64,000 bases of DNA from an uncultured bacterium (lineage in GTDB: Bacteria; Poribacteria; WGA-4E; GCA-2687025). Below, piece by piece: positions 14,901-60,312 of this stretch. The position numbers and the translations under genes are program-made. The stretch lies in the NCBI GenBank assembly GCA_964473525.1, contig CAYYPK010000031.1:7820-71819 (forward strand), written 5' to 3'. The notes under the pieces are model-generated. The model was not told where the DNA came from. It ran no database searches and saw only the letters and a program-made list of their open reading frames with translations. Each line of letters begins with the position of its first letter. Position 1 is the first letter of the stretch.

Positions 14901-14905
14901 ACCCG

Positions 14906-26602: not shown

Positions 26603-26647
26603 GCTGCCTCCACGTCGCGCCGCGCGCGTGTGCCGGATGCGGCTCGC

Positions 26648-27010
26648 CTACGACACGGAGATCACCAGGATTCGCATGTCAGCGTCCGACGTGTTCTCCA
26701 GCCCATGCTCGCCGCCGGGGTACACGGCGGTGATGTCTCCCGGCCCCACCTCGTGGCGCTGACCGTCGAGTGTCATGGCGCCCGTCCCGCTGACGACATA
26801 GTAGTACTCCTCGTCGTCCTCGTGCCGATGGACGCCGATGGAGACGCCTGGTGGAAGGATGTCGTCGTGGATGAAGTTCACGTGGCGGCCTTGCGTCTCG
26901 CGGCCGTCGAGGACGCGCGTCCAGTCGAGGGCGCCTTCGCCGCCGTGGCATTCCGGGAGCGGCGCGCGTGCCATTTCGTCGCGCTTCTTGATGAGGGTCG
27001 TACCCGCCAT
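26648..27010 (-). CDS. cupin domain protein
   Basis: 120-aa product MAGTTLIKK… with both cupin motifs (GVHRHEDDEEYYYVVSG and PGGEHGLEN). The track ORF (401 aa) is an N-terminal over-extension. Met 27008-27010 lies 20 bp downstream of the stop of the upstream gene and is preceded by a GAGAGGA Shine-Dalgarno. Confidence 0.75.
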   Translation of the reverse strand: MAGTTLIKKRDEMARAPLPECHGGEGALDWTRVLDGRETQGRHVNFIHDDILPPGVSIGVHRHEDDEEYYYVVSGTGAMTLDGQRHEVGPGDITAVYPGGEHGLENTSDADMRILVISVS

Positions 27011-27030
27011 AGGGATCCTCTCAGCGTCCG

Positions 27031-28929: not shown

Positions 28930-28963
28930 GTAGGCAGTCTAACCTCGCGTCCGTCGTCCCGCG

Positions 28964-30088: not shown

Positions 30089-30152
30089 GTTGGGGCCTCT
30101 CAGGTTCGGTTGCCTGTAGCCAGTTACTGAGACGGTAGCCGCATGCCGATCG

Positions 30153-31007: not shown

Positions 31008-31037
31008 GTCCCGCCTTCCGTCCGTCAGTGGGAGCCG

Positions 31038-32231
31038 TCAGTGGGATATCGTGACGCGCGCTCCAGATTCCGCTGAGCGCAACACGGCGTCGAGTACCTG
31101 TTGGTTCTTCCATCCGTCGTAGAAGTCGGGCTGCGGGTCGGTGTCCTCGTGGATGGCGCGGACGAAGTCCGCCACCTGGTGCACGAACGTGTGCTCGTAG
31201 CCTATCGCGTGACCGGGTGGCCACCAGGCGGCGACGTACGGGTGCGCCTCGTCCGTTGTGAGGATGGTGCGGAAGCCTTGGGCGCCAGCGTCGTCCTCGC
31301 GCGAGTAGAACTCGAGCTCGTTCATCCGCTCGAAGTCGAACACAATGCTGCCCTTGCTGCCGTAGATTTCGAAGCGGTTGTGGTTACGGCGGCCAGGCGC
31401 AAACCGGGTGGCTTCGAATGTCCCTACGGCTCCGTTCTCGAATCGGGCTAGGAACGACGCGGTGTCTTCCACCGTGACTTCGCCGGTCTCCACCCCGCCC
31501 TCGGCCGTCAGCATGGTTGTCAGCTCGCCCGTCTCCTGCGGCAGAGGGCGCTCCGTGATGAAGTTGTGGGTTTGCCCCGTGACCTCGGTGATCTCGCCGA
31601 CCAGGTACCGCGCCAGGTCGACCAGATGTGCGTTGAGGTCGCCGTGGGCGCCGGAGCCAGCCGTCTCCGCCCGGAGCTTCCAGATGAGTGGGAAGTCCTC
31701 GTCGACGATCCAGTCCTGCAGGTAGGCGCCGCGGAAATGGAAGATGCGGCCGATCTTGCCTTCCTCGATCAGGCGCCGCGCGTACGCCACCGCCGGCACA
31801 CGTCGATAGTTGAACACGATCATGTGCTTCACGTTCGCCGCGCGGACAGCGTCCAGCATCTCGCGGGCCTCGGCCTCGTTGAGCGCCATCGGCTTCTCAA
31901 GGAGCACGTGCTTGCCGGCCCGCGCAGCGGCGACGGCGATGTCCCGGTGCGTGTTCTGCGGTGACGCTATGTCGACAATGTCGATGTCGTCCCGCTCAAT
32001 GACGCGTTCCCACGACGTGTCAGCCTCCTCCCATCCCCACGCGTCCGCAGCCGCTTGGAGAGGGGCTTCGCTGCGACCACAGATGACCTTCATGACGGGC
32101 TTCGCGTCGCAGGGAAAGAAGAAATCCGCGTCCTTGTAGGCATGGGAGTGCGCCTTCCCCATGAACCTGTAGCCGATCAGCGCGACGTTCAGTTCCGAGG
32201 GCACGAGGCGCCTCCTCTTCCGGCGGGTCAC
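31038..32231 (-). CDS. Gfo/Idh/MocA family oxidoreductase
   Basis: N-terminal NAD(P)-binding segment (…VALIGYRFMGKAHS…) and …GKHVLLEKPMA… characteristic of the family. Confidence 0.85.
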   Translation of the reverse strand: MTRRKRRRLVPSELNVALIGYRFMGKAHSHAYKDADFFFPCDAKPVMKVICGRSEAPLQAAADAWGWEEADTSWERVIERDDIDIVDIASPQNTHRDIAVAAARAGKHVLLEKPMALNEAEAREMLDAVRAANVKHMIVFNYRRVPAVAYARRLIEEGKIGRIFHFRGAYLQDWIVDEDFPLIWKLRAETAGSGAHGDLNAHLVDLARYLVGEITEVTGQTHNFITERPLPQETGELTTMLTAEGGVETGEVTVEDTASFLARFENGAVGTFEATRFAPGRRNHNRFEIYGSKGSIVFDFERMNELEFYSREDDAGAQGFRTILTTDEAHPYVAAWWPPGHAIGYEHTFVHQVADFVRAIHEDTDPQPDFYDGWKNQQVLDAVLRSAESGARVTISH

Positions 32232-45121: not shown

Positions 45122-45211
45122 TGGCGGAGAGAGAGGGATTCGAACCCTCGGTGACATTGCTGCCACACATGATTTCCAGTCATGCCAGTTAAGCCGCTCC
45201 TGCATCTCTCC
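45122..45211 (-). tRNA. tRNA-Ser (anticodon GGA), class II tRNA with long variable arm and encoded CCA
   Basis: Hand-folded: 7-bp acceptor GGAGAGA/TCTCTCC, 3-bp D-stem CAG/CTG, anticodon stem CATGA/TCATG with loop CTGGAAA, an ~18-nt variable arm, T-arm GAGGG-TTCGAAT-CCCTC, discriminator G and CCA. Confidence 0.85.
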
Positions 45212-46469: not shown

Positions 46470-47174
46470 CTACGACGGCAACGACTTCTTCTGTGCGGCG
46501 GCCATGAGCTTGGCGACCTCGTCATTTACCTCGGCCGTCCCCGCATCGCCGTATTTGTCCTCGAGGGACTTCTGCGCCTCCGCGGCTGGATCGGTCGAGA
46601 GTTCCTCCCACGCCTCCGCTTCCGTCTCGAGCGTTTCGACCTCTCGCTCGAGGTTGTCCAACGCCGCGAGTGGGCTGTCCCCGGAGTCGAACGACGAGGA
46701 CGCCTTAGCGAGCTCCTGCCGGACCTTCGCGCCTTCCATGCGCGCGGACATACGAACCAGATTGCTTTCCGCCCCAGCAACCTTGGCCCGTGAGTTGTTC
46801 AGCTGGCCACGCAACTGCGCAATGAGCTGGCTCGTGTTCTCGATTTCGCTCTCGAGCGTCCCAAGGCGTTGCTCTGCCTCGGCGCGGTGTTCGAGCGCGG
46901 TGCGAACGTCGTCTTCGTTCCCGTCACCCGCCGCGCGCTCCGCGAACGTCTGGAACTTCTGCGCTTCCGCGAGCGTGTCGGCGCGCTCCCGCTCCATGCG
47001 CTTGTTGGACGCCACGAGCTTCGCGATCTTCTGCGTGAACTCCGCGATCTGCTTCTTGCTGTCCTCAATCGCGAACTTCCCGTCGCGGACGGGATCCCCA
47101 ATCGCCTTCGCGGCGTCCTCGTCCTTCGCGCGGAGCCAATTCCCGAGAGCCTTGAATACCTTTGCCATAGCCAT
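46470..47174 (-). CDS. PspA/IM30 family protein
   Basis: 234-aa coiled-coil protein with PspA/IM30-like heptad pattern (…KVFKALGNWLRAK…AIEDSKKQIAEFTQKIAKLVA…). Confidence 0.85.
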   Translation of the reverse strand: MAMAKVFKALGNWLRAKDEDAAKAIGDPVRDGKFAIEDSKKQIAEFTQKIAKLVASNKRMERERADTLAEAQKFQTFAERAAGDGNEDDVRTALEHRAEAEQRLGTLESEIENTSQLIAQLRGQLNNSRAKVAGAESNLVRMSARMEGAKVRQELAKASSSFDSGDSPLAALDNLEREVETLETEAEAWEELSTDPAAEAQKSLEDKYGDAGTAEVNDEVAKLMAAAQKKSLPS

Positions 47175-47216: not shown

Positions 47217-47669
47217 TTACCGAACGCCCTGACCGATGCCAATGCGCAGCACCTCGGCTCCTGCGACGAGCGCCGACCACAGACTATCAATGGATGTGGT
47301 CAGTTCCTCGTCGGAAAGGTCACCGATGGGCAGGCTGTCCGTCAGCACGATGGGCCAACTGTCGGGGTCGTCGAGGTCGGGGTTGTCAGAGGCGGTAATC
47401 GTCGCGAACGCATACGGCCGTATCTGAGTGTTGATATCGAGACATGCAACGCAGAACTCCATGACCATGTCGTCGTCGATGTCACCGAGCTTCGCCACCT
47501 GGCAGGTGACCACTAGTTCGCTGGTCGCGTCGTTGAGGGTGATGACCGCGACGAACGGGTTTTCTGACCCTCCCACGCCGATGGATACCGACCCGTTCTG
47601 CGCCTCGGGCTCGTAGCCGCTGGCCTCGAGCGCGTCAGCGACCTTCTCCAGGCTGTCGATCTTTGCCAT
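47217..47669 (-). CDS. YjfI/DUF2170-like protein, the usual partner of PspA-like YjfJ
   Basis: 150 aa from Met MAKIDSLEKVADALEASGYE…; the track ORF is over-extended at the 5' end. Adjacency to the PspA-like gene supports the call. Confidence 0.6.
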   Translation of the reverse strand: MAKIDSLEKVADALEASGYEPEAQNGSVSIGVGGSENPFVAVITLNDATSELVVTCQVAKLGDIDDDMVMEFCVACLDINTQIRPYAFATITASDNPDLDDPDSWPIVLTDSLPIGDLSDEELTTSIDSLWSALVAGAEVLRIGIGQGVR

Positions 47670-47951
47670 GTTTGCCTCGTTGAGTCGGGGAACGGTAAGG
47701 GGCGTCGTCGCGTGACTGCCCGCAATTCTACACCATCGCCCCCGCCACACGCACGCCACCCGATGTGATGGCGCCAGGCGTACCCCTGCTCCTCATGTTT
47801 GACACGACCCAGACCATGTGTTAGGTTCGGCTGCGGCTTCTGCCGCGCGGATGGGCGTCCCGTCACTTTGTGCGCGCTGACGGCGACGATGCCCAAGTTC
47901 GCCGACTGCCACATTGAGGTATCGCGCTGCGTAGGCTGAATAGAGAGCGAG

Positions 47952-50900
47952 ATGCGGAAGATAGACACTCCTCGGACCCGGCGATCCCTGTCCTTGCGCC
48001 GCGCGCCGATCGTGGCGTGGTGCGTCCTCCTGCTCGTAGCAACTCTCCATCACGCGCACGCGCAACGCCTGGACCTCACCCTGTCCGAAGACGCCGAAGC
48101 GATACGCCGCGCTGTCGGTATGGACAACATCAAGCGCGACATCGCCAGGCTCACTGCGCTCGAAAGCCGAGTAAGTGGCTTCCCGGGCGCCGATAGCGCG
48201 TCCAAGTACGTCTTTGATCGGTTCCAGGAGATCGGCCTCGACGACGTCGAGACGCGCACCTTCACCATGACCGTGCCGATGGAGCACGGGCTCGGGTCCA
48301 TGGTCGTCCGAGATGCGGACGGCGCCGAGATACGCCAGATCGACGTTCGGGCCGTGTGGCCCAATCTCGTACGCACCTCCTTCCTGCCGAACGGGCTGAA
48401 GCACACTGTCGAGAGTGGGCACACGCTCGAGTGGATAGGCGCCGCCTACCAGGTGGATCCAGCCGACATCGTAGCGGACATGCGCAACCAGGCTCTCCGT
48501 AACCAGCGCACCGACGGTCTGGACAACGACAACGACGGCCTGGTGGACGCCGCGGACCCCGACGGTGAAGTGACGCCCGTCGAAGGCACGTCCATCTTCG
48601 TTCCCACGGGCGGCCTGCAAGGTCGGCTCATCTACGGTAGCAGGTCCGCGCTACGCAACTACGACGGCAAGGAAGTTGGCGGGTTCTGGCACTCCGTGAG
48701 CCCAGACGACACGCTCGACGGCGTCGCTCGCAGATACCGTGTCACCCCCGGTAGCATCCTTGACGACGTCCTGAACCTGCACCTGAGCCGCAGCCAGGAC
48801 GGGATCGACAACGACGCCGACGGCGAGATCGACGAGGACGGCGAGATCGACCCGTTCGCGGTGATCGCCGCGTGGGCGTCCGACGGGGTCGACAACGACG
48901 GCGACGGGATGATCGACGAGGCCGCCGACAAGGACCTGGCGAAGACATCGGAGGCGTCCGTCTTCATCCCGCGCGGCTCGATCGTGCTGGCGGACTTCAA
49001 CTCCAGCACCAACTGGATCAACGCCGCGATGCTCGGCGCGCAGGCGGTCCTCTTCATTGAGCCAGAGGACACGATCCGTGGCGAGGCCGAGAACAAATAC
49101 CTTACCGTACCGGCGAACCTGCCCCGATTCTGGATCGGTAAGGCCGACGCCGACGAACTCCTGGAGATCCTGGGCGAGGATGGCGGGGCGTCCGTCTATC
49201 TGTCCGCCCAGCTCACCGCCGACGTGCGCTGGGAGCGGCGTCCGGCCCAGAACGTGCAGGGCATCCTGCCCGGCGCCGACCCGGTGCTTCGTGACGAGCT
49301 GATCGTCGTCCAGAGCTACTACGACTCCATGTCCGTTGTGCCGTCCCTGGCGCCTGGGGCGCAGACGACATCCGGCATCGCGTCGATGTTCGAGTTGGCG
49401 CGCCTCCTGAAGCAGCCGGAATTCCGGCCGGCGCGTTCGGTGCTGTTCCTGGCGACGGGAGGTCATTTCCAGGGCCTCAGCGGCATGCGCGCCTTCATGG
49501 AAGGCCTGAGCCAGGACAACGTTGAGACGATGCGCGAGATGCGCCGCGACCTCAACCAGGACGTCATTGAGTTCCAGGAACTCGGCCGCAAGATGGCCCT
49601 CTCGATCGACCGCGGCTACCTTGTCGAGTTTCCGCCCGCGTTCTTCCACCGTGTCGAGGACATCGCGACGGACCTCGATTCGGTCGTCAGCAGCCTGAAC
49701 GACCTCGCCGCCGCACAGCGACAGGTAGACCGGCTAGCTGAGGCGCAGCGCGCGGACAAGGAAGAGCAGCGCAAGCGTAAGACGGCGGACCTCTCGAAGA
49801 ACCGCGACGCACAGAACTTCACCGAGGAGGAACGCGCGCTCCTCAACGTTCACCTCGCTCGCGCCGAATTCCTTGGCCTGCAGACTGCCCAATTCCTCAA
49901 GGACGTAACACGGCGCATCGGGGACCTGAAGGTCATCGGCCTTCTCAAGTCGCGCGAGACCGAGCGGCAGATTCTGAACGACGTCGCGATCCCTATCGCC
50001 CAGTTGGACGTGTGGGCGATGGCTCAGGTCCGCGCCATCGCGGAAAGCGGCCAGGTTGGCGACGGCTATTCGCGGGACCGCGCCGATAGCTTGCTGCCGT
50101 ACGAGGACCGCGCGGCGCCTCCCGCGGCTGCTCTCAACACCATGCAGCCGGTGGTGATCCCCGGCTTCGGCGAACTCGATCCCAGGGACGCGTTCGATCA
50201 TCTGGCCAGCCCTGGCGTGCTGGACGAGTGGGAGATCGTGAAGGGCCGAGTCTCCACCCTCTACATTCCCGACAAGGTTCTCGGACGCCATCTGAACGCT
50301 GTTGAGCTAGGGCGCCTACGACGCGCCGCGAAGACGCTGAACGAACGGGCGTCCGGGTCGGACTACGCTAAGACGCGCAACGATCTCCTCGCGAAGGCTC
50401 TGGCGGCAGCGCAAGGGTACGCAGGGGCGGCGGGCGACATCGCGACGATCCAGGGGGCGCTGCAAGCGGGGTCGTTCCGCGCGATCCGCCCCGCCCTCGC
50501 GCGATACCTGACCGACGACGAGATGCGCGGGGCCGAGGCGAGCTTCGCCGAGCTCCAGGACGGCGCCGAATACGCTGCCGAGGAGTTAGCGCACTTCCTG
50601 AACATCGCGGAGCGGCGGCTCGAGCAGGAGGGGCCGCGACTCGAGAGCCTCCTCAGCGCGGCGCAGTCCGGCGCCCTCAACCGCGCCTTCCGCGCGGAGG
50701 AGCAGCTGGCGCTTGCCAATCATCTCACCCAGGCTGACCAGGATGGGCTAGCGGGCGCGCACGAGCAGCTCGTCGCGGAGTACGACCACGAGACGTATCT
50801 CGGCGTGGCGGAGGCCCGCGCGCGCAACGACGTGCTGGAACTCGCGCAGCTACAGCGTCTCGTCCCGACGATGGAGCGCGCCTTCACCGAGGGCGAAAAG

Positions 50901-53900
50901 CGACTCCTTCGCACGAACCTGATGACCATGCGGAACTCACGCGTCCGCAACGTCCACAAGCGCATTGAGCGCCTGTCCCGCATCGACCCGGTGGTGTATC
51001 AGGAGCGCGTCGCTGGCGTCATTCAGTCCATCCAGCTGCAGCAGGAACTCGGCCGCTACTACCAGTCCCTTGTCGTGTCGTTGGACCTCTCGACGCAGAG
51101 CGACGGCTTCGGCGTCTTCTACAAGGGCTCGTTCTACGACGACAACCGCGAATTCGAGCTACGTCGCGAATACGCGCCCATCGGCAACAAGCTGATGGAG
51201 TATGCGACGAACGCCAACCTGAAGCGCAACCTGGAAGCCCTACGTCGCTTCCCAGACGACCACGTCCGGCAGGCGATCTTGTCCAGCCAGTGGGGCGTCG
51301 CCGACCGCGTGAACACCGTCGAAGCGCTCGAAGGCAAGACGCTCGAGACGCTCGTCTTCGACTACTACGACACGCTCGTCACGCTGGGTGGCGTCAGCCG
51401 CCTCATGAAGCTGCAGTTCGAGGACATGCGGCAAAAGGGCGAGCCGTCCAAGACGATGCTCAAGGACATCGACTACATCCGCAAGGAGGTCAGTCGGTTC
51501 GTCCGCAACGACATTCGCGAGGCGCGTCGGCGCCGCAAGTCCACGAAGCGCCTGTTCGCGCGCGTCGAGAAGATGCTCGCGCTCAAGAGCCGACCCATCG
51601 AAGGGCTGTCGGACGACGAGATCAACGACCTGCGCAGCCTCATGGCGATGGCGGGCATCGAGTCCGAGACGAACTTCGTCAACGCCATCAGCGCCAGCGG
51701 CGGTAAGACCTGGCAGACGTATATCCCAGGCAAGATGGCGTTCGACAGCGAGGTCGCCACGCTCTCCGGCAAGACGGGCATGACCTTCGCGACCATCGAC
51801 GACGGACGGGTGTACACGGACACGCCACTCGACACCTACGACCGGCTGAACTTCGACAACCTGGAAGCGCAGGTTCAGACGCTGGCGTCTGTTCTGGTGC
51901 AGATGCTCCGCGACCCGAAGATGCCGACATCCGCGCGGGTCGGGAACTTCTATACGGCGCTGTCCGGCCGCGTTGTCGAATACGACGCCCGCGAGAGCGC
52001 CGTCCCGCAGACTCCGGTGCAGAACGCCATCGTCGCCGTGCGACGCAAGACGAAGACCATGATGGGCGTGCGCGGGGATCTGTACGTGCTCGGCGACCAG
52101 AAGGGCCGATACACGCTGGCTGGCCTGGCGATGGAAGGCCGCGCGACGACGCGTCCGAAGGGCACGCAGGAGGTAGAGGCGTTCGTCCTCGACCCAGACT
52201 CGGGCGACATCGTCTATGCCCCCGACCTCGGCGAGTTCGGCGCGAAGTTCTATCCGAACCTCGTTCCCATGAACCGCCGCCGCGTCGGGGCCAACATCGT
52301 CGCGTTTCCGTGCGTCAGCACGACGATTTACGACCTCGTCGACCAACGGTACATGCGTACGCTCACGTCCTTACAGGTGTACGATTCCACCCGCGACGCG
52401 CCGCCGCAGCGGTACGGCATCTCGCGCCCGTGGATACAGCCGCTGGTGTCCGCCGCGGAGCCCATCGCGCTCGTCTATTCCGAGCCGGACTCCCGCATCA
52501 AAATCAGCATGGCGTCAGGCCTGTTGGGCAAGCTCCTGCTGCTCATCAAGGCCACCGGCACGAACGTCGACAACCCCACGCTCTACACGGGTGAAGGGTT
52601 CGTCGTCCGCGAGAACGGGTCGATCCGCGTGACGCCGTACGTGGTCGTGAAGGACATGTGGAATCTCGATGAGGCGCGCATCGGCCTCTACACGCGCTAC
52701 GGCATCAGCAACAAGCGTCTGGAGGAGTTGCACGGCGAAGCGCAACGGCTGCTAGAGAAGGCTGAGCGTGACTTGGCCGCGAACGAATATACCGCGGCCC
52801 TGAAGAAAGCGCGCGCCGCTTGGGGCAACGAGTCCATCGCCTACCCTGACGTCAAGGCGACCGGCAACGATGTCGTCCGGGGCGTCATGTTCTACCTGTT
52901 CCTGCTGCTCCCGTTTGCGATGTTCGGCGAGCGCCTTCTGTTCGCGGCGACGAACATCAACAAGCGCATCGGTTACACGTTCGGCATCTTCCTGCTCGTG
53001 TTCTTCTTCCTCAGCCAGGTGCATCCGGCCTTCGAGATTGCCGAGACGCCGTTCATCATCCTTATCGCGTTCATCGTGCTTGCGCTGACGGTGGTCGTCA
53101 TCACCATCATCATCCGCAAGTTCAACGAGCAGCTCGAGAAGATGCGGCGTGAGAAGTCGAAGATCTACAAAGCGGACGTCGGGCGGCTGTCGGCCAGCGC
53201 CGCCGCGTTCTCGCTGGGCATCTCCAACATGCGGAAGCGCAAGGGCCGCACGCTGCTGACCTGCGCGACGTTGGTGGTGCTGACGTTCACGGTGATTTCA
53301 TTCACGTCCGTGCGCACGGAGATTCGCGCGCATTCGACGCGCATCCCAGGGGTCACGCCGAACTATCAGGGCGTGCTGATTCGCGACCAATACTGGCGGC
53401 CGCTCGAAGAGCCGGTCGTCGACGGCTCGCGCACGAACTTCCTCAGCGCGACCATCGCGGCGCGTATCGAGGGCGCGATGCAGAACATCGACGTGACCAG
53501 CTACGTCGCCCCGCGCGCTTGGTACGAAGCGGCGAGCGTCGGCAACCAGTCGGCGGTTGTCATCGATAGCCTCGTCGAGGATGACACGAGCTACACCGTG
53601 AACATGCTCGTGGGCATGTCGCCCGACGAGAAGCACGTCACGCGCATCCACTCGAAGCTCGCCTACGGTCGGTGGTTCGAGGACGACGAGCTAGACGCCT
53701 ATGTGTGCGTGCTGCCCAAGGGCGTGTCGGATTCCCTCGGCGTCACTGAGGAGCAGGTCGTCAACGGCGACGCCAAGGTGCGCATCTTGGGCGCCGAGTT
53801 CCTGGTCGTGGGCGTTCTCGGGATCGACTTCAAGGAGCTGACGGACCTCGACGGCGAGGAACTGACCCCCGTTGACTACACGCTCTTGCAGCAGCAGCAG

Positions 53901-55070
53901 CAGCGCGGTTCGCAGGACTCGACCCTCGAGGGTGAGCTGCAGAAGTACCAGCATCTGCCGCCCGACGCCATCGCGGTCCTCCCGTACCAGATCGTCGTGG
54001 ACTCCGGCGGCAACGTGAAGTCCGTCGCCGTGAACATGGAGGATGTGCAGGGCGAGCTGCCAGCGGGCGTGACCGTCGGCGACAAGATCGACGCCATCAT
54101 GTCGCCAGTGATGAAGCGCTCCGGCTTGGACTACTTCGTCGGGAAGGGGCGCAACGTCTTCCTATACAGCTCCATCGGCGGCACGTCCACGGAGCAGATG
54201 AGCAACCTCGCGGTGCCGATCATCATCGCCGCGCTGATCGTCCTCAACACGATGCTCGGCGCGGTCTACGAGCGTGTGCGCGAAATCGGAATCTACAGCG
54301 CCGTCGGCTTGGCGCCGGTGCACATCGCCTTCCTCTTCATGGCTGAGGCGTGTGTGTATGCCGTCCTCGGCGCTGTATTGGGTTACCTGCTGGGTCAGAT
54401 GACCGCCTGGACGCTCGTGCAGACAGGCTGGCTGGCGGGACTCACTCTGAACTACTCCGCGCGATCCACGGTCTACGCGACGATGATCGTCATGTTCGTG
54501 GTGTTGGCGTCGACTATGTATCCGGCGATCAAGGCCGGGCGCATGGCCGTGCCGGACATTGAGCGCAAGTGGCGCCTCCCCGAGCCGGACGGAGACGAAT
54601 GGCATTTCGACCTGCCGTTCACGGTTCTCGGTGAGGAGGCCCTTGGTCTCAACATCTTCATGCGGGACTACTTCGAGGCTCACGCGGACGAGTCGGCGAG
54701 TGACTTCTACGCGGACGATGTCAGCTTCCGACGGGAGACGCCGGAGGGCGCGGAGGACGAGGAGTACGCCTGCGAGATGATGGTGTGGTTGGCGCCGTAT
54801 GACTTAGGCGTAAGCCAGCGCGTCAGCCTCCAGACAACGGCCGTCGGCGGCGAGGAAGAGGAGCTCTTCCGCATCCACTTGGTCGTCTACCGCGAGAGCG
54901 GCGAGATCGCTTCGTGGAAGCGCGTCAACCGACGCTACCTGAACCTGATTCGCAAGCAGTTGCTTATCTGGCGCACGTTCAACGTCGAGTTGCGTGGCGA
55001 ATTCCACGCGCGTGGACGCGACGAGACCGAACGCATGGCGGGTGCCACCCCGGAATTCGCGTCCGACTGA
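47952..55070 (+). CDS. giant fusion protein: signal peptide + degenerate M28-peptidase-like (transferrin-receptor-like) ectodomain + Asp-rich Ca-binding-type repeats + long coiled-coil region + 3 TM + FtsX/MacB-type ABC permease
   Basis: M28-like block …LIVVQSYYDSMSVVPSLAPGAQTTSGIASMFELARLL…RSVLFLATGGHFQGLSGMRAF, with the canonical HxDS / GAxDDxSG / EE zinc-ligand positions substituted. DxDxDG-like repeats (DGLDNDNDGLVDAAD, DGIDNDADGEIDEDGEID, DGVDNDGDGMIDEAAD). FtsX-like first TM …ISNMRKRKGRTLLTCATLVVLTFTVISF…, large periplasmic domain, and C-terminal 3-TM FtsX core …IYSAVGLAPVHIAFLFMAEACVYAVLGAVLGYLLG…. Confidence 0.7.
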   Translation: MRKIDTPRTRRSLSLRRAPIVAWCVLLLVATLHHAHAQRLDLTLSEDAEAIRRAVGMDNIKRDIARLTALESRVSGFPGADSASKYVFDRFQEIGLDDVETRTFTMTVPMEHGLGSMVVRDADGAEIRQIDVRAVWPNLVRTSFLPNGLKHTVESGHTLEWIGAAYQVDPADIVADMRNQALRNQRTDGLDNDNDGLVDAADPDGEVTPVEGTSIFVPTGGLQGRLIYGSRSALRNYDGKEVGGFWHSVSPDDTLDGVARRYRVTPGSILDDVLNLHLSRSQDGIDNDADGEIDEDGEIDPFAVIAAWASDGVDNDGDGMIDEAADKDLAKTSEASVFIPRGSIVLADFNSSTNWINAAMLGAQAVLFIEPEDTIRGEAENKYLTVPANLPRFWIGKADADELLEILGEDGGASVYLSAQLTADVRWERRPAQNVQGILPGADPVLRDELIVVQSYYDSMSVVPSLAPGAQTTSGIASMFELARLLKQPEFRPARSVLFLATGGHFQGLSGMRAFMEGLSQDNVETMREMRRDLNQDVIEFQELGRKMALSIDRGYLVEFPPAFFHRVEDIATDLDSVVSSLNDLAAAQRQVDRLAEAQRADKEEQRKRKTADLSKNRDAQNFTEEERALLNVHLARAEFLGLQTAQFLKDVTRRIGDLKVIGLLKSRETERQILNDVAIPIAQLDVWAMAQVRAIAESGQVGDGYSRDRADSLLPYEDRAAPPAAALNTMQPVVIPGFGELDPRDAFDHLASPGVLDEWEIVKGRVSTLYIPDKVLGRHLNAVELGRLRRAAKTLNERASGSDYAKTRNDLLAKALAAAQGYAGAAGDIATIQGALQAGSFRAIRPALARYLTDDEMRGAEASFAELQDGAEYAAEELAHFLNIAERRLEQEGPRLESLLSAAQSGALNRAFRAEEQLALANHLTQADQDGLAGAHEQLVAEYDHETYLGVAEARARNDVLELAQLQRLVPTMERAFTEGEKRLLRTNLMTMRNSRVRNVHKRIERLSRIDPVVYQERVAGVIQSIQLQQELGRYYQSLVVSLDLSTQSDGFGVFYKGSFYDDNREFELRREYAPIGNKLMEYATNANLKRNLEALRRFPDDHVRQAILSSQWGVADRVNTVEALEGKTLETLVFDYYDTLVTLGGVSRLMKLQFEDMRQKGEPSKTMLKDIDYIRKEVSRFVRNDIREARRRRKSTKRLFARVEKMLALKSRPIEGLSDDEINDLRSLMAMAGIESETNFVNAISASGGKTWQTYIPGKMAFDSEVATLSGKTGMTFATIDDGRVYTDTPLDTYDRLNFDNLEAQVQTLASVLVQMLRDPKMPTSARVGNFYTALSGRVVEYDARESAVPQTPVQNAIVAVRRKTKTMMGVRGDLYVLGDQKGRYTLAGLAMEGRATTRPKGTQEVEAFVLDPDSGDIVYAPDLGEFGAKFYPNLVPMNRRRVGANIVAFPCVSTTIYDLVDQRYMRTLTSLQVYDSTRDAPPQRYGISRPWIQPLVSAAEPIALVYSEPDSRIKISMASGLLGKLLLLIKATGTNVDNPTLYTGEGFVVRENGSIRVTPYVVVKDMWNLDEARIGLYTRYGISNKRLEELHGEAQRLLEKAERDLAANEYTAALKKARAAWGNESIAYPDVKATGNDVVRGVMFYLFLLLPFAMFGERLLFAATNINKRIGYTFGIFLLVFFFLSQVHPAFEIAETPFIILIAFIVLALTVVVITIIIRKFNEQLEKMRREKSKIYKADVGRLSASAAAFSLGISNMRKRKGRTLLTCATLVVLTFTVISFTSVRTEIRAHSTRIPGVTPNYQGVLIRDQYWRPLEEPVVDGSRTNFLSATIAARIEGAMQNIDVTSYVAPRAWYEAASVGNQSAVVIDSLVEDDTSYTVNMLVGMSPDEKHVTRIHSKLAYGRWFEDDELDAYVCVLPKGVSDSLGVTEEQVVNGDAKVRILGAEFLVVGVLGIDFKELTDLDGEELTPVDYTLLQQQQQRGSQDSTLEGELQKYQHLPPDAIAVLPYQIVVDSGGNVKSVAVNMEDVQGELPAGVTVGDKIDAIMSPVMKRSGLDYFVGKGRNVFLYSSIGGTSTEQMSNLAVPIIIAALIVLNTMLGAVYERVREIGIYSAVGLAPVHIAFLFMAEACVYAVLGAVLGYLLGQMTAWTLVQTGWLAGLTLNYSARSTVYATMIVMFVVLASTMYPAIKAGRMAVPDIERKWRLPEPDGDEWHFDLPFTVLGEEALGLNIFMRDYFEAHADESASDFYADDVSFRRETPEGAEDEEYACEMMVWLAPYDLGVSQRVSLQTTAVGGEEEELFRIHLVVYRESGEIASWKRVNRRYLNLIRKQLLIWRTFNVELRGEFHARGRDETERMAGATPEFASD

Positions 55071-55119
55071 GGCGGCGCACACGACAGGCGCATGAACGAC
55101 CGCGCCCAAGGGAGCGAGA

Positions 55120-57162
55120 GTGGCTCGATCAAGACGTAAAGGGGAATCGCTAGCCGAGGAGATGCAATCCTGGGCAAAGCGATACGACACGGACGAAGGT
55201 ATCCGCACCTTCGAGTCCGGGCTAAGCGTCAAAGTCCTCCTGGGCGCGGCTTTCGTCGGCTTCCTGATGATGCCCGGCGCCATCTACCTGACCCTACAGA
55301 CCGGTGGCGCGGCGGGCGGGGCCGCTGCCCCGTGGGTAGCCGTCATTCTCTTCACGGAGATTGCGCGACGCTCCTTCCAGACCGCCAAGCGGCAGGAACT
55401 CTACATCCTGCTGGCCCTCACGGGGGCTGCGGTGAACGCTGGCGGGCAGTATTACGGCTACATCATGGACTCGTACTTTATCAACTCGCAGCAAGCCGAG
55501 TCGTACGAGATCGCCGACAAGATACCTGACTGGGCCATCGCGCCCAAGGACTCCAGGGCGCACGCAGACCGATCTCTATTCCACAAAGACTGGTGGCGCG
55601 GCGCTAGGAGCGAGGCGCGCGTGTTCGGGTTCCCCATCGGCCCCATCACCCTGATGCTCCTGTTGCAGGTGTTGGGACGGCTCCGGCACATATCAGGCAG
55701 TTACTTCCTGTTCAGGGTGTGCGCGGACTTCGAGAAGTTACCGTACCCAATGGCGCCCGTGAGCGCCCAGGGGGCCACTGCGCTCGCGGAGAGCACCCAC
55801 AAGACGGAGACCTGGAGGTGGAGGGTCTTCAGTATTGGCTCCATTATCGGGATGGGTTGGGGAGCCATCTATGTCGGGGTGCCCCAAATCAGCGGCGCCC
55901 TAGGCATGTCGGAGCCGTTGCGCATCATCCCCATTCCGTTCATCGACTTCACGCAGAGCATTGAGGCGTTCGCGCCGACCGGGACGTTCGCTATCACGAC
56001 GGACGCCAGCGCGATACTCACTGGCTTCGTGATGCCCATTCCCGTCGTGGTCGCCCAATTCGTGTCCGCTTCGTTTACGCAGTTCCTCCTCAACCCGTTC
56101 CTGTACCGGCAGGACATCCTGCACACGTGGGAACCGGGGATGGACGTGCGCATCACAGGCCTGCGCAACAGCCTCGACTTCTGGATGAGCTTCGGCTACG
56201 GGAAGACCTTCTCGTTCGCCGTCCTCGGGCTCGGCACCGTCATCATCATGTTCGCCAAGAGAGGCAACAAGAAGGAGGTCGGCGCGGGGAGTTGGGCGGC
56301 GCCTCCTGGACGCGGCGATTTCCCCATCTGGCTGGCCCTCATCATGTGGGGTCTTGGGATGGGCGGCTATGTCTACGTCGTGCACAAGCTGATCCCAGGC
56401 TTCCCGCTCGCGTTCCTGATGGGCTTCGCGTTCCTCTACACCCCGCTGAACTCCTACATCAGCGCCCGAACCTTCGGCATCATGAGCCGCGACCTGTTCG
56501 ACATCCCGTACATCAAGGAAGCCACGTTCATCCTGAGTCGATACGATGAGATCGACATATGGTTCGCGCCGTTCCCAAGCGAGGACTACGGCACGGAGAC
56601 ACAGGGGTGGCGCATCCTCGAGCTGACCGGCACGACCTTCACAAGTAAGATCGCGGCTGACCTGCTTGCCTGGCCGGTACTGCTGATCGCCGGTATCGTG
56701 GCGTGGCATTTCATCTGGAAGCTGGCGCCGATTCCGTCTGCGCAGTACCAGTTCGCGCAGATGATGTGGCCTCTGTTCGCAACGAACCGAGCGTTGTGGA
56801 TCACGGCTCTGCGGGATGGTCACTCCGAGCAGTTACAGGCCATCCGACCGACGTACATTCTCGCGGGCTTCGTCATATCGTTGGGCATCTACGGACTAAC
56901 CGTCGTGTCCCGCATTCCATACCGTCACATTGCAGGTTACGGGGTCATCGGGGGCCTCGGCGCCGACCCGGGTATGTTCTTCCTCCAGTTCATTGGCGCG
57001 ATCGTTGGCCGCTACGTGATGATCAAGCGCTTCGGGCGTAACCGATGGGCGCGGTACAACCCGGTGCTGCTAGCTGGGTTCTTCTGCGGCATGGCGCTGG
57101 TGGGTATGGCGGGCGTCGCGATCGACCTGATACAGAAGTCGGTCATCGTGAAGCCGTTCTGA
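55120..57162 (+). CDS. polytopic membrane protein, divergent paralog P3 of the P1/P2 family
   Basis: 680 aa with a GTG start and a GGGAGCGAG Shine-Dalgarno. It shares …FEKLPYPMAP… and the overall hydrophobic pattern with P1/P2, and lies 49 bp downstream of the giant ORF. Confidence 0.55.
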   Translation: MARSRRKGESLAEEMQSWAKRYDTDEGIRTFESGLSVKVLLGAAFVGFLMMPGAIYLTLQTGGAAGGAAAPWVAVILFTEIARRSFQTAKRQELYILLALTGAAVNAGGQYYGYIMDSYFINSQQAESYEIADKIPDWAIAPKDSRAHADRSLFHKDWWRGARSEARVFGFPIGPITLMLLLQVLGRLRHISGSYFLFRVCADFEKLPYPMAPVSAQGATALAESTHKTETWRWRVFSIGSIIGMGWGAIYVGVPQISGALGMSEPLRIIPIPFIDFTQSIEAFAPTGTFAITTDASAILTGFVMPIPVVVAQFVSASFTQFLLNPFLYRQDILHTWEPGMDVRITGLRNSLDFWMSFGYGKTFSFAVLGLGTVIIMFAKRGNKKEVGAGSWAAPPGRGDFPIWLALIMWGLGMGGYVYVVHKLIPGFPLAFLMGFAFLYTPLNSYISARTFGIMSRDLFDIPYIKEATFILSRYDEIDIWFAPFPSEDYGTETQGWRILELTGTTFTSKIAADLLAWPVLLIAGIVAWHFIWKLAPIPSAQYQFAQMMWPLFATNRALWITALRDGHSEQLQAIRPTYILAGFVISLGIYGLTVVSRIPYRHIAGYGVIGGLGADPGMFFLQFIGAIVGRYVMIKRFGRNRWARYNPVLLAGFFCGMALVGMAGVAIDLIQKSVIVKPF

Positions 57163-57214
57163 CGCGGCGTCGTCGACGCGATCGCACGGTATTCCACGCC
57201 ACGGACATGGAACC

Positions 57215-58156
57215 ATGGCCGACTCATGGGCGCGGTTTGGGTGGCAGGGCCTCTCCGCTGAGGCGCCCGTCGACTGGGAACTCGTGGGCATCCCCAAAAC
57301 CCACGACGCCGCGGAAGGCTATCTGCGCCTCGATGACGCCACGCAGCCGCGCTTCGAGCTGAAGTGGAACTCCAACGCGCAGCGCAAGTTCGACATCGAG
57401 AAGACGCTGGACGACTACCTGTCCGGCATTCGGAAGACCTACGAGAAGCAGATCGGCCCCATTGAGGTGCGCAAGGACCAAGTGCTCATCCCGGACGCTG
57501 GCGCGGATGCCGCGTTCCACGAGCATCGTGAGGTGCGCTTCTTCTCGTGGCGTGGCGAGTTGCGCGCGTACGGCGCCATATGGCGTTGCGCCGAGTGCAA
57601 GCGCGTGGTCATGGCGCAGGTCATCGGCCCTTCGGGCGGGCAAGGGACGAAGACGCAAGCAGTGCGCATCCTACGTTCTATCCAGGACCACCCGTCCGGT
57701 CCTACGAACTTGTGGACCGCCTACGGCCTGGAAATGGACGTGCCGCGGCGCTTCCGCTTGGACAAGCTACAGCTCCTGAACGGCTACATCCTCTTCTCCT
57801 TCACCGACGGTTCGTCTCGCGTGGCGGTCGAGCGCTACGGGCTCGCCGACCAGCACATGAAGGATGGCGACATCGACGCGTGGTTCCGACGGACGTATGC
57901 TAAGCAGATGCGCGGGACGACGCTGGCCTTGGACGACGACGACCTGCACGACCATTCGCTGCGTATCTGGGACGCGTCGCTCCCCAAGGCCTGGGAGTCG
58001 TACGCGCGCCCCGTGCGCACTGCGGGACATGTGTGGCAGGACGCCACGGCGAACCGGCTCTATGTCGTGCGGGCCACCGGCAAGCGTGATCTGCGAGCCG
58101 CGATGCGGCGTATCGCGGCGAGCATCCCGATGCGGCCGGTCGAGGTCATGGAATGA
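57215..58156 (+). CDS. hypothetical protein (313 aa), no family recognised
   Basis: ORF with coding-like composition. Its stop overlaps the start of the next gene in an ATGA. Confidence 0.4.
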   Translation: MADSWARFGWQGLSAEAPVDWELVGIPKTHDAAEGYLRLDDATQPRFELKWNSNAQRKFDIEKTLDDYLSGIRKTYEKQIGPIEVRKDQVLIPDAGADAAFHEHREVRFFSWRGELRAYGAIWRCAECKRVVMAQVIGPSGGQGTKTQAVRILRSIQDHPSGPTNLWTAYGLEMDVPRRFRLDKLQLLNGYILFSFTDGSSRVAVERYGLADQHMKDGDIDAWFRRTYAKQMRGTTLALDDDDLHDHSLRIWDASLPKAWESYARPVRTAGHVWQDATANRLYVVRATGKRDLRAAMRRIAASIPMRPVEVME

Positions 58157-58647
58157 TGGCGGCGGCGCTTAACAACGTGCTGCACACTTTGCGCCTGCGG
58201 CGCAGGCCGCCGCAATCGCAGCGGTCGCGCGCCGACGTCATGGCGTCCGTGCCGGTGCGGAATTCTTTGGTTGAGTGGCGCAAGGAGGAGACCGGCGACG
58301 TCTCGCTCGTAATCCCGGCGGACCACAAGCGTACGTTGCGCATCCTGGTCCGTGTGATGAACCTGCCCGCCAAGCGGGTCGTGGCGTTGGACGCGGTGGG
58401 CTCCTTCGTCTGGGAGCAGTGCGACGGTGAGAAGACGTTCGGCGAGGTGTCGGAGGCGCTGGCGAAGCAGTTCGGCATGACGCGCCGCGAGTCCGAAGCG
58501 TCCCTGGCGGAGTTCTTCCGCGTGCTGGGTAAGCGTGGGATGCTGGGCTTCGTCGTGGCTGACGGGGTGAAAGAGCAAATAGAGGCGGCGAAAAACAGCG
58601 GCCGAGGGCGCGGCAAGCGGCAACACGGGAAGAAGGGGCGTCAATGA
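58153..58647 (+). CDS. PqqD-family protein (RiPP recognition element-like)
   Basis: …ALDAVGSFVWEQCDGEKTFGEVSEALAKQFGMTRRESEASLAEFFRVLGKRGML matches the PqqD consensus (…LNetaaxiWellDGkrtveeixeelaeeydvdpeeaexDvlefleeLxexgLl). It is ATGA-coupled to both neighbouring genes. Confidence 0.7.
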   Translation: MMAAALNNVLHTLRLRRRPPQSQRSRADVMASVPVRNSLVEWRKEETGDVSLVIPADHKRTLRILVRVMNLPAKRVVALDAVGSFVWEQCDGEKTFGEVSEALAKQFGMTRRESEASLAEFFRVLGKRGMLGFVVADGVKEQIEAAKNSGRGRGKRQHGKKGRQ

Positions 58648-59444
58648 CCGAAGGAACCATGGGAGTCCAGGCCACGGACGCCGGGGCGATTGCCGCGACG
58701 TTGGCCCCCGTCGAGAACGCTGTTCGTGTGCGCAATGTCGTCAAGCGCTACGAGATGGGCGACACGGTCGTCGATGCGCTCAGGGGCGTCAACCTCGAAA
58801 TCCGGCGTGGTGAATACATCTCCATCGTCGGGCCGTCGGGCTCCGGCAAGTCCACGCTGTTCAACATGGTCGGCGGACTCGACAAGCCGACAGAGGGGCG
58901 CGTCTACATCGACGAGGTGGACATCGCCCAGTTGGACGCGCGCGAGTTGGCGTGGCTCCGATGCCGCAAGATCGGCTACATCTTCCAGAGCTTCAACCTC
59001 ATTCCCGTGATGACGGCTCTCGAGAACATCACGCTGCCCATGATCTTCGCAGGCGACACGGCGGACGACGCCATTGAGAAAGGCGTCGGGCTCCTAACGA
59101 GGGTGGGTCTGGGCGATCGCGTGCAGCACAAGCCGGTCGAGCTCTCCGGCGGGCAGCAACAGCGCGTTGCGATCGCGCGCGCCTTCGCAAACGATCCGTC
59201 CATCATCCTCGCGGATGAGCCGACAGGGAACCTGGACACGCAGACAGGACTCGATGTTATCGACCTGTTGCGTGAGCTGAACCGGGAAGGCAACGTCACG
59301 ATCATCACGGCGACGCACGATCTTAAGATGCTGGATGTATCCGACCGCATCGTGCACATCGAAGACGGCCGAGTGGCGAAAATCGAGCTCCGCGAGGACG
59401 CCGACCTGGATGTCGGCACGCTCGACGGACAGGAAGTAGGATAA
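58644..59444 (+). CDS. ABC transporter ATP-binding protein (MacB/LolD-type)
   Basis: Walker A GPSGSGKST, the Q-loop, signature LSGGQQQRVAIARA, Walker B IILADEPTGNLD and an H-loop. Typical partner of FtsX-type permeases. Confidence 0.92.
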   Translation: MTEGTMGVQATDAGAIAATLAPVENAVRVRNVVKRYEMGDTVVDALRGVNLEIRRGEYISIVGPSGSGKSTLFNMVGGLDKPTEGRVYIDEVDIAQLDARELAWLRCRKIGYIFQSFNLIPVMTALENITLPMIFAGDTADDAIEKGVGLLTRVGLGDRVQHKPVELSGGQQQRVAIARAFANDPSIILADEPTGNLDTQTGLDVIDLLRELNREGNVTIITATHDLKMLDVSDRIVHIEDGRVAKIELREDADLDVGTLDGQEVG

Positions 59445-59448
59445 CCGC

Positions 59449-60312
59449 ATGTATCGCGACCTTTCGCCCGGCGCCGTGGGCATCCCAGCAAATACGATTG
59501 AGGACGGCATCCGCTACGCGAAGGCGGGCAGCTTCCAGGGGCTCGATCTGCCTCTCGGCGACGCACGCCGCATCGTCGAAGCTGACGGCGTCGACGCCGT
59601 CAAGCAGATGTACGCGGAAGCGGGGCTGCGGATGGGCGCGTGGGGTTTGTCCACACGGTGGAACGCCGACGACGCGGAGTTCTACGAGAGCCTGGCGAAG
59701 CTGCCCTCGGACGCTGCTCTGGCCGCCGAACTCGGGTCGACCCGCACGATGACCTGGGTTGTCGGTTGGTCCAGCGAGAAGACGCGCCAGGAGCAGTTCG
59801 ACTTCCTCGTGAAGCGTTTCGGGCTCATCGCGGAAGTCCTGCTCGACTACGGTTGCACGATCGGCCTGGAATTCATCGGGCCACACACATCACGCAAGAG
59901 CGCCCGGTACGGCTGCGCCTACACGATGGAGGGCATGCTCGCGGTCGCCTGCGCCATCGGCACGGGCAACGTCGGCCTCCTGCTTGACTGCTGGCACTGG
60001 TACACCTGCCAGAGCACGCTGACGGACATTCGTCAACTCGTCGCCGAGGAGGTCGTTTACGTCCACGTCAACGACGCGCCGACGGGCATCGACGTGTTGG
60101 ACCAGATCGACAGCACGCGCGCGCTGCCGGGAGAGACGGGCGTCATCGACCTCGTCGGGTTCCTGCAAGCGCTCAAGGAGATCGGCTACGATGGGCCTGT
60201 CACGCCTGAGCCGTTCAGCAAGGAACTGAACGCGATGGAGGACAAGGAAGCCGCCTCGGCGAAGGTCGGCGGCGCCCTGAAGGCCGTGTGGGACGAAGCT
60301 GGTCTCGACTAG
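59449..60312 (+). CDS. sugar phosphate isomerase/epimerase (xylose isomerase-like TIM barrel), second copy
   Basis: 287 aa with …GLEFIGPH… and …LLLDCWHWY…VHVNDA… family pattern. It starts 4 bp after the ABC ATPase gene. Confidence 0.8.
   Translation: MYRDLSPGAVGIPANTIEDGIRYAKAGSFQGLDLPLGDARRIVEADGVDAVKQMYAEAGLRMGAWGLSTRWNADDAEFYESLAKLPSDAALAAELGSTRTMTWVVGWSSEKTRQEQFDFLVKRFGLIAEVLLDYGCTIGLEFIGPHTSRKSARYGCAYTMEGMLAVACAIGTGNVGLLLDCWHWYTCQSTLTDIRQLVAEEVVYVHVNDAPTGIDVLDQIDSTRALPGETGVIDLVGFLQALKEIGYDGPVTPEPFSKELNAMEDKEAASAKVGGALKAVWDEAGLD

Follow-up and report, generated by a model that had tools for sequence, protein, structure and literature searches.

Type VII ATP-binding cassette (ABC) systems such as MacB, LolCDE, FtsEX, and BceAB have central roles in envelope biogenesis, in division, and in resistance to drugs or peptides. 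Whenever another member of this class has come to be understood, it has shown a different use of mechanotransmission. Here, we describe a gene cassette of this class from an uncultured bacterium of the phylum Poribacteria, lying on contig CAYYPK010000031.1 within a stretch of 64,000 nucleotides with a G+C content of about 65%, hereafter called the window. Six plus-strand open reading frames (ORFs), designated G1 to G6, occupy window positions 47952–60312, and the first five of them (G1–G5, 47952–59444) recur as a colinear block throughout the sampled Poribacteria and in further phyla. With moderate confidence, we regard the products of G1–G5 as subunits of a single conserved envelope machine that belongs to the type VII (MacB/FtsX/LolCDE-like) ABC class and would operate by mechanotransmission.

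The large permease subunit is encoded by G1 (47952..55070), whose 2,372-residue product fuses an M28/PA-like ectodomain to a MacB/FtsX-type permease. It is followed by G2 (55120..57162), encoding a 680-residue polytopic membrane protein with an OPT/Yellow-Stripe-like (YSL) transporter fold, and by G3 (57215..58156), encoding a 313-residue soluble protein of a cassette-specific family with a PsbP/Mog1-like alpha/beta fold. The start of G4 (58153..58647) overlaps the stop of G3, and its product is a 164-residue PqqD-like cytoplasmic protein with a winged helix of the type found in recognition elements (RREs) for ribosomally synthesized and post-translationally modified peptides (RiPPs). G5 (58644..59444), whose start overlaps the stop of G4, encodes a MacB/LolD/FtsE-class ABC ATPase, and G6 (59449..60312) encodes a xylose-isomerase-like TIM-barrel protein that matches Pfam AP_endonuc_2 and represents a lineage-specific addition. 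The shared strand, the spacers from G1 to G6 (49 bp, 52 bp, overlap, overlap, and 4 bp), and the separation of the FtsX permease from its ATPase by three genes had all been noted in the original prediction, which was made from the letters of the window alone. The coordinates bear these statements out and show each overlap to be 4 bp long, and the gene order is conserved at other loci. Pfam likewise upholds the domain calls (Peptidase_M28, MacB_PCD, and FtsX in G1; PqqD in G4; ABC_tran in G5; AP_endonuc_2 in G6), and since each of the six ORFs has homologs, all of them are real genes. Translational coupling is suggested by the 4-bp overlaps at the G3/G4 and G4/G5 junctions. A perfect TTGACA lies about 150 bp 5′ of the G1 start and is followed after about 17 nt by TAGGTT (47798–47835); this possible promoter failed the −10 criterion of our promoter scan. 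A search of the window with Rfam gave no riboswitch or leader, its sole match being a tRNA gene (45125–45211, minus strand).

The cassette shares the defining features of type VII ABC systems. In an N-in/C-in topology, G1 combines transmembrane helices (TMs) 2–4 of the FtsX domain with a MacB-type core domain between TM1 and TM2, and a separate MacB/LolD/FtsE-class ATPase with intact motifs accompanies it. In other phyla, the cassettes contain two different FtsX-type subunits, one large and one small, as is also the case for LolC and LolE. However, the cassette differs from each characterized member. Unlike MacAB–TolC, it has neither a membrane-fusion protein nor an outer-membrane channel; no HlyD/MacA adaptor was seen among the cassette members or the annotated or recurrent neighbors, although no dedicated adaptor model was run. 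Unlike FtsEX, it has no EnvC-like partner, and its proteins score far below the corresponding family cutoffs (FtsX_Gneg, 16.9 bits versus 255; FtsX_actino, 25.5 versus 250; FtsE, 210 versus 264.85), as they also do for LolCDE (LolC, 20.7 bits versus 473; LolD, 237 versus 307.75). In addition, G1 possesses three further TMs, an ectodomain of about 1,600 residues, and a C-terminal cytoplasmic domain, and we know of no counterpart of G2, G3, or G4 in any described type VII system. The cassette belongs to the type VII ABC machines but falls outside MacAB–TolC, FtsEX, and LolCDE, and its set of partners has been described for none of them. The impression that this was not a recognized system agrees with the full-text literature, in which we found no published description of the gene combination and nothing relevant on the domain combination, on DUF6785/DUF6784, or on Poribacteria together with FtsX.

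Conservation of the cassette within and beyond Poribacteria

A profile of G2 retrieved 80 Poribacteria loci. G1-G2-G3-G4-G5 are colinear and on one strand in 73 of these, and the remaining seven are truncated where their contigs end. Relative to the window proteins, median identities are 53% for G1, 60% for G2, 35% for G3, 40% for G4, and 79% for G5. All sampled Poribacteria carry one syntenic copy of the cassette. Its flanking genes (PspA, a 180-residue ORF, and an ion channel upstream; a 314-residue ORF and an aldo-keto reductase downstream), however, recur only in the closest relative, locus L007. The PspA/IM30 membrane-stress gene (46470–47174, minus strand) and the 180-residue ORF, which has no Pfam match (47217–47759, minus strand), lie upstream of G1 and are divergent from it. 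The nearest relatives of the window are pelagic Candidatus Poribacteria metagenome-assembled genomes (MAGs), with G2 being 91% identical to its counterparts on JABGQA010000106 and NYZG01000416, and several marine metagenome contigs from JGI and ENA carry the same genes as the block.

The sixth gene behaves differently. A G6 ortholog was found only in L007 and L009, together with L001 and L002 from the same organism, and is absent from the other Poribacteria loci. This restriction to L007 and L009 indicates that G6 is a recent addition and not part of the core. The six-gene membership originally proposed is therefore reduced to a conserved unit of G1–G5, and the isomerase is ruled out as a component on the basis of conservation across the Poribacteria loci. 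Its 4-bp spacer suggests that G6 may be co-transcribed with the cassette in the lineage of the window. AP_endonuc_2 TIM-barrel genes also occur near G1 homologs in unrelated lineages (L095:9196–10011, L092:3234–4007, and L096:23580–24566) and twice in the window (30153–31007 and 59449–60312); in the Latescibacteria locus L095, the gene stands directly downstream of the G1 homolog. The family is very abundant in these phyla, and its recurrence near G1 may be due to chance.

Taxa are named here as in the public MAG records. Outside Poribacteria, a sixth member of another kind joins the cassette, a small four-TM FtsX protein encoded directly before the ATPase and marked by the motif RYKEIGTMKCLGA. 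The Armatimonadota chromosome CP070648 encodes, in order, an M28–FtsX protein of 1,545 residues, a G2-like protein of 679, a G3-like protein of 262 (as called), a PqqD protein of 142, a small FtsX of 215, and an ABC ATPase of 245, and a 4.2-Mb contig (L093) carries the same six genes in the same order. In Desantisbacteria the order is G3-PqqD-small FtsX-ABC-DUF6785-G1-G2, and a Brocadiia contig with a partial cassette reads DUF6785-sulfatase-DUF6785-G1-G2. A partial Gemmatimonadota locus (L092) and the metagenome contig L094 both show DUF6785-G1. In L092, the G1 homolog is followed by a long G2-family gene (14278–16995), whose 905-residue product exceeds the usual length by about 230 residues that contain no Pfam domain.

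A scan of metagenomes was seeded on the small FtsX because the G3 alignments held no stretch that was conserved enough, and the ORFs were annotated with custom hidden Markov models (HMMs). The full order G1-G2-G3-PqqD-small FtsX-ABC was present at 17 of the 25 loci that had at least 9 kb of upstream sequence, in one case with DUF6785 in front. Permuted loci (L090, L134, L137, L141, L164, and L166) keep the sub-blocks G1-G2 and G3-PqqD-small FtsX-ABC intact. G2 directly follows G1 in most loci that hold both, and G3 and the PqqD gene are tightly linked to those for the small FtsX and the ATPase, often with start and stop codons that overlap. In one metagenome lineage (L103–L118), three genes after the ABC ATPase read, by eye, as a SPOR-domain protein, GrpE, and FtsZ.

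Searches with tblastn and HMMs detected no small FtsX in the window or within 10 kb at any of the 80 Poribacteria loci and returned only the FtsX domain of G1 and an unrelated 391-residue FtsX/ATPase pair about 7 kb away. Clustering of flanking ORFs of at least 120 residues at about 90 non-Poribacteria loci (L087–L176) was used to look for extra conserved members and gave lineage-specific neighbors only. Since no further gene is generally conserved around the cassette, we infer that the ancestral cassette comprised six genes and that the Poribacteria version is one without the small FtsX. In some sponge-associated Poribacteria, inserted DNA splits the G4–G5 junction, the place where other phyla hold the small FtsX. 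The insert at L019:13423–18491 encodes a C5 DNA methylase, an HATPase_c_3 protein, an N6/N4 methylase, and an HNH nuclease and resembles a restriction–modification or defense island; similar gaps of 1.6–5 kb are present in L029, L032, L035, L049, L061, L069, and L079. Overall, the operon-like unit that had been proposed from the window stands as G1–G5, being colinear in 73 of the 80 Poribacteria loci and found in further phyla, and the comparative genomics suggested as a check on it found the block conserved in other genomes.

Architecture of G1 and its partner proteins

Homologs of G1 occur in Armatimonadota, Latescibacteria, Gemmatimonadota, Acidobacteria, Planctomycetota, and one Bathyarchaeia MAG, with lengths of 1,426–1,838 residues (typically 1,450–1,700). 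The parts common to other phyla are residues 47–160, 342–530, 1039–1086, and 1239–2372. The additional 900 or so residues of G1 are Poribacteria-specific inserts, which explains its length of 2,372 residues and shows that the giant size emphasized at first is not an essential property of the protein.

From its N-terminus, G1 begins with a probable Sec signal peptide (residues 1–38, 47952..48065; all G1 features lie on the plus strand), as judged from a basic N-terminus, a hydrophobic stretch with a hydropathy peak at residues 13–31, and an AHA/Q motif. An M28/PA aminopeptidase-like domain follows (residues 47–540, 48090..49571). Pfam Peptidase_M28 matches residues 434–541 with 43.6 bits against a cutoff of 21.3, covering only the first half of the profile. 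The active site is degenerate: in an alignment with the Aeromonas aminopeptidase (1amp/2anp), whose numbering is used here, the zinc ligand His97 is replaced by Tyr, the zinc ligand Asp117 by Gln/Thr with a one-residue deletion, the general base Glu151 by His, and the zinc ligand Glu152 by Phe, and the remaining two ligands, Asp179 and His256, fall in the unaligned half. The family consensus reads YYDS...APGAE...SAHF, with His505 invariant. Because this degenerate consensus extends across the family, the loss of the active site is a family trait, and the domain is, by its sequence, read as a pseudo-peptidase that lacks the catalytic residues needed for processing. Homologs from Armatimonadota, Desantisbacteria, and Brocadiia retain this region.

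Against solved chains, the G1 family profile matches the aminopeptidase YwaD (6hc6, 9e-25), the transferrin receptor (about 4e-11), Nicalin (2e-8), and Nicastrin (0.04), as well as MacB (5lil). The transferrin receptor, Nicastrin, and Nicalin are instructive in that, like G1, they have lost zinc-ligand and general-base residues and serve as ectodomains of membrane complexes. By analogy, the M28-like domain of G1 may act as a receptor. However, G1 differs from these M28-fold receptors and from YwaD and the Aeromonas aminopeptidase in its bacterial origin, in its fusion in cis to an ABC permease, and in being matched by only the first half of the M28 profile.

Two inserts set the Poribacteria ectodomain apart. 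The first (residues 160–340, 48429..48971), which has no counterpart in the alignments of other phyla, combines three acidic DxDxDG-type repeats with a weak LysM-like segment and gives an NCBIfam acid_disulf_rpt match at residues 187–204 and a weak LysM match at residues 247–271. A Pfam LysM domain is present in two partial relatives, P0220 and P0221. The second is a helix-rich insert of about 700 residues (541–1238, 49572..51665), of which other phyla share only residues 1039–1086 according to BLAST; spurious matches to viral heptad-repeat bundles lead us to regard it as possibly coiled-coil-like. The ectodomain closes with a conserved extracytoplasmic domain (residues 1239–1640, 51666..52871) that is 39–44% identical to homologs from other phyla and has no Pfam, PADLOC, or PDB sequence match.

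Three extra TMs (residues 1641–1720, 52872..53111) link the ectodomain to the MacB-like module. They were assigned from hydropathy, have an equivalent place in the homologs, and correspond to positions 75–207 of the PADLOC profile PDLC01991. After a basic cytoplasmic linker, TM1 and the MacB-type periplasmic core domain (PCD) occupy residues 1769–2080 (53256..54191); the Pfam MacB_PCD match (residues 1771–1983, 32.9 bits versus a cutoff of 27, E 1.1e-7) lies between hydropathy peaks at residues 1769–1787 and 2080–2105. The FtsX domain with TM2–TM4 (residues 2081–2198, 54192..54545) is recognized by Pfam FtsX (PF02687) at residues 2090–2198 (48.3 bits versus 25.5, E 1.3e-12), and the closest solved chains to this module are MacB (5lil), YtrF (9o9x), LolC (7arh), and LolF. 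The protein ends in a cytoplasmic domain of about 175 residues (2199–2372, 54546..55067), which is conserved to the C-terminus across phyla and gives no Pfam or PADLOC match when searched alone. PDLC01991 covers it in part, reaching residue 2265 of G1 and, in an Armatimonadota homolog, profile position 684 of 810.

Among catalogued families, the G1 membrane module is closest to the PADLOC profiles PDLC01991 and PDLC01990 ("CARF_m8--CARF_LolE_TM" and "CARF_Beta-galactosidase_LolE_TM"), whose names presumably go back to a published CARF census. PDLC01991 scores 172 bits for G1 and 167–220 bits for six homologs, and the match comprises a LolE-like module of seven TMs plus PCD (profile positions 25–684 of 810). 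Positions 685–810 are never matched, and residues 2197–2372 of G1 alone give no match. As these terminal 125 or so positions remain unmatched, the CARF assignment cannot be transferred to G1. The beta-galactosidase variant, PDLC01990, shows the same design as G1, namely an enzyme-like ectodomain fused to a LolE-like module, but neither profile includes the M28/PA ectodomain.

Neither G2 nor G3 has a Pfam or NCBIfam match. In a three-dimensional fold test, G2 shows the OPT/YSL fold (TC 2.A.67) and resembles barley HvYS1 (PDB 7wsr) at an identity of 12–13%. Pfam OPT (PF03169) does not match G2 or 15 of its 16 relatives, and one relative matches at 6.3e-7; some sources label relatives "peptide transporter." Profiles of G2 and of the DUF6785 proteins gave no matches against PDB sequences.

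The original prediction had placed G2, as paralog P3, in a triplicated membrane-protein family together with two other proteins of the window. These two (Pa, 658 residues, 24626–26602; Pb, 632 residues, 27031–28929; minus strand) are DUF6785+DUF6784 membrane proteins that match PF20581/PF20580 at 1e-144 to 1e-149 and are 34% identical to each other. A relation of G2 to this pair is not demonstrable, and we treat it as a separate family: BLASTP gave E of about 0.05, hhalign gave probabilities of 5–19% with profiles of 16 and 82 sequences, HMM scores in both directions fell inside a block-shuffled null, and neither PF20581 nor PF20580 matched G2. Only the short motif D-x-E-[KR]-L-P-[YF]-P is common to G2 and the DUF6785 proteins. 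The link that had been drawn between this family and the giant permease survives in another form: homology of G2 to DUF6785 is not demonstrable, but DUF6785 genes stand directly upstream of G1 homologs in other lineages (L089, L090, L092, L094, L141, and L151).

The DUF6785 pair heads a minus-strand run in the window (24626–32231), in which an ORF with a C-terminal cupin domain lies between the two genes and overlaps the second as listed, and a Zn-dependent dehydrogenase, an AP_endonuc_2 TIM barrel, and a GFO/IDH/MocA oxidoreductase come after the pair. In the Brocadiia contig, a sulfatase is flanked by DUF6785 genes. This neighborhood looks like a carbohydrate-type utilization locus for an orphan transporter-like family. 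Elsewhere in the window, a plus-strand ORF of 1,164 residues (21120–24614) carries an SprB repeat and a sub-threshold M64-peptidase-like match, and two more very large ORFs of 1,496 and 1,566 residues lie on the minus strand (2810–7300 and 7374–12074).

G3 and G4 are soluble and lack a signal peptide. The secondary-structure pattern of G3 shows two apparent PsbP/Mog1-type modules. Compared with the PsbP/Mog1/DcrB/Eag-chaperone fold, G3 has no sequence-family membership and is cytoplasmic, whereas the bacterial members are mostly secreted. Most members of the G3 family carry a probable metal-binding set, W-x-C-x-x-C ... W-H-C ... C-H, at the C-terminus, and the window G3 and its close relatives retain only the CxxC (residues 125–128). 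G4 matches Pfam PqqD (PF05402) with 44 bits against a cutoff of 23.4; its closest solved chain is the lasso-peptide RRE TbiB1 (5v1u, E 7e-4), with PqqD also among the closest, and it is 36–38% identical to its cassette counterparts in Desantisbacteria and Armatimonadota. It shares the PqqD domain with the RREs PqqD and TbiB1 but differs from them in its ABC cassette setting, in which no modifying enzyme or precursor gene was identified and, outside Poribacteria, the PqqD gene lies directly upstream of the small FtsX and ATPase genes. G5 matches Pfam ABC_tran (E 5e-34) with its Walker A (GPSGSGKST), signature (LSGGQQQR), Walker B (ILADEPT), and H-loop (THD) motifs all intact. Its top NCBIfam matches are LolD, MacB, YbbA, DevA, and FtsE, all below their cutoffs, and it is 70% identical to the cassette ATPases of Armatimonadota and Desantisbacteria.

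A candidate mechanotransducer and its alternatives

Most likely, the cassette couples an OPT-fold permease to a type VII ABC mechanotransducer. A G5 dimer would hydrolyze ATP in the cytoplasm, and the FtsX helices of G1 would pass the resulting movement to the periplasmic core domain and then to the non-catalytic M28/PA-like receptor domain. The mode would be mechanotransmission as in MacB, LolCDE, and FtsEX, with the permease itself not serving as the conduit. G1 is probably a homodimer in Poribacteria and probably paired with the small FtsX elsewhere. The actual transmembrane route for a small, possibly peptide-like solute would be G2, and G1 would bind or free this solute outside the membrane. 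G3, with its PsbP/Eag-like fold, and G4, with its PqqD-like peptide-binding fold, may be adaptors or regulators of the ATPase module at the cytoplasmic face. The Poribacteria inserts, with their Ca-binding-type acidic repeats, LysM-like segment, and helical stalk of about 700 residues, probably lengthen the receptor toward the cell wall, and G6 would be a recent passenger. The more specific version, in which the pseudo-aminopeptidase receptor and its ABC mechanotransducer are physically coupled to the OPT-fold permease and energize or gate it, while the PsbP/Eag-like and PqqD-like proteins handle peptide cargo in the cytoplasm, is advanced only tentatively.

Several observations weigh against this interpretation. 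We read G1–G5 as one complex from gene conservation, order, and domain content, and no fusion proteins joining the cassette families were found. The G1 homologs of Latescibacteria (L095 and L096) stand alone, with no partner within 10 kb, and five loci (L126, L136, L140, L161, and L168) have the small FtsX–ABC pair without G1-G2 nearby. The scan of the block for promoters and terminators gave nothing above shuffles and is uninformative either way. A peptide-like substrate is suggested because the M28, OPT, and PqqD folds associate with peptides elsewhere, and this analogy from family associations is weak. The stoichiometry of the Poribacteria permease, with no small FtsX within 10 kb, is a guess. 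Furthermore, characterized OPT/YSL members are proton-coupled importers; no case is known to us in which an OPT protein is encoded or acts together with an ABC system, so that the proposed coupling would be without precedent.

Among the alternatives, cell-wall remodeling in the manner of FtsEX deserves attention, as FtsEX is an established precedent for a type VII ABC system that regulates periplasmic enzymes through a coiled coil. Here, the ectodomain, driven by the ABC module, would activate or position a peptidoglycan hydrolase, and G2 would import the released peptides. The weak LysM-like segment of Poribacteria G1, the Pfam LysM domain in two relatives, the long helical insert, and the SPOR-domain-, GrpE-, and FtsZ-like genes recognized by eye after the cassette in L103–L118 fit this picture. 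However, the LysM segment and the stalk are Poribacteria-specific and not ancestral, the FtsZ neighborhood is confined to a single lineage, the NCBIfam FtsX models score only 17–25 bits against cutoffs of 250–255, and neither the cassette nor its recurrent neighbors were seen to include a hydrolase or EnvC-like gene. Moreover, one partial homolog is labeled Bathyarchaeia, which lack murein, although this may reflect MAG contamination. We consider this explanation unlikely, and we place a role in nutrient scavenging at the same low level. In the latter, the ectodomain would capture extracellular peptides or glycans, the OPT-fold G2 (with DUF6785 in other phyla) would import them, and the ABC module would gate or power the capture. 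OPT/YSL proteins are importers, the fold of G2 is that of the YSL/OPT transporter HvYS1, and "peptide transporter" labels are attached to some of its relatives. The six G1 homologs directly preceded by DUF6785 genes, the company of DUF6785 genes in the window and in L089 (sugar-type oxidoreductases, TIM barrels, a cupin, and a sulfatase), and the sister architecture in PADLOC with a beta-galactosidase ectodomain on the same LolE-like module point in the same direction, as does the TIM-barrel G6 located 4 bp after G5 together with the AP_endonuc_2 gene after G1 in L095. Nevertheless, the latter adjacency may be chance in so common a family, no type VII ABC system is known in uptake, and no catabolic enzyme is found among the conserved members. 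Additionally, a single-copy locus that is syntenic in all sampled Poribacteria appears more housekeeping-like than a substrate-specific accessory locus.

The presence of a bona fide PqqD-domain protein, whose closest solved relative is the lasso-peptide RRE TbiB1, raises the idea of RiPP-like export and maturation, with G4 as an RRE binding a leader peptide, the ABC system exporting the product, and the M28 domain trimming it outside. Bacteriocin and darobactin exporter ATPases also appear in the NCBIfam list of G5, below cutoffs. However, the cassette encodes no radical-SAM, YcaO, lasso-cyclase, or other peptide-modifying enzyme, and none recurs in the flanks of the approximately 90 non-Poribacteria loci, where ORFs of at least 120 residues were considered and no dedicated small-ORF search was made. 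No precursor gene would fit into the spacers in the window (49 bp, 52 bp, overlap, overlap), the catalytic His, Asp, and Glu-Glu are missing from the M28 domain, and single-copy conservation throughout a phylum is atypical of RiPP clusters. This makes the RiPP interpretation improbable, and the earlier designation of G4 as an RRE does not hold in the RiPP sense, given that no modifying enzyme is found in the cassette or among recurrent neighbors at about 170 loci and the gaps in the window leave no space for a precursor. Still more doubtful, and in our estimate very improbable, is a cyclic-oligonucleotide-controlled antiviral membrane effector, as the PADLOC name "CARF_m8--CARF_LolE_TM" would imply. 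G1 and six homologs do match PDLC01991 with E values of 4e-51 to 9e-66, including part of the C-terminal domain, but the match lies in the membrane module and PCD, the last 125 or so profile positions are never reached, and the C-terminal domain of G1 alone is unmatched. No CRISPR, cas, or cyclase genes occur among the annotated or recurrent neighbors, and the cassette is a core, syntenic locus. Finally, a chance adjacency of unrelated genes forming no functional unit is scarcely credible. The promoter and terminator scans support neither side, but across 73 Poribacteria loci with changing flanks, order and strand are kept at protein identities of 33–60%, and they are also kept across several phyla.

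A type VII mechanotransducer joined to an OPT-fold permease would have consequences beyond this locus. The cassette brings together components never seen with type VII systems, namely an OPT-fold permease, a pseudo-M28 receptor, and PqqD-like and PsbP-like proteins, and it is widespread in phyla with few cultured members. Understanding it would allow thousands of "hypothetical" genes to be annotated, would test whether an ABC motor and an OPT-fold protein cooperate, and would show roles for PqqD-like proteins outside RiPP biosynthesis. If true, the hybrid machine would provide the first function for three large orphan families, G2, G3, and, by context, DUF6785/DUF6784, which occur in Poribacteria, Armatimonadota, Planctomycetota, Gemmatimonadota, Desantisbacteria, and other mostly uncultured phyla.

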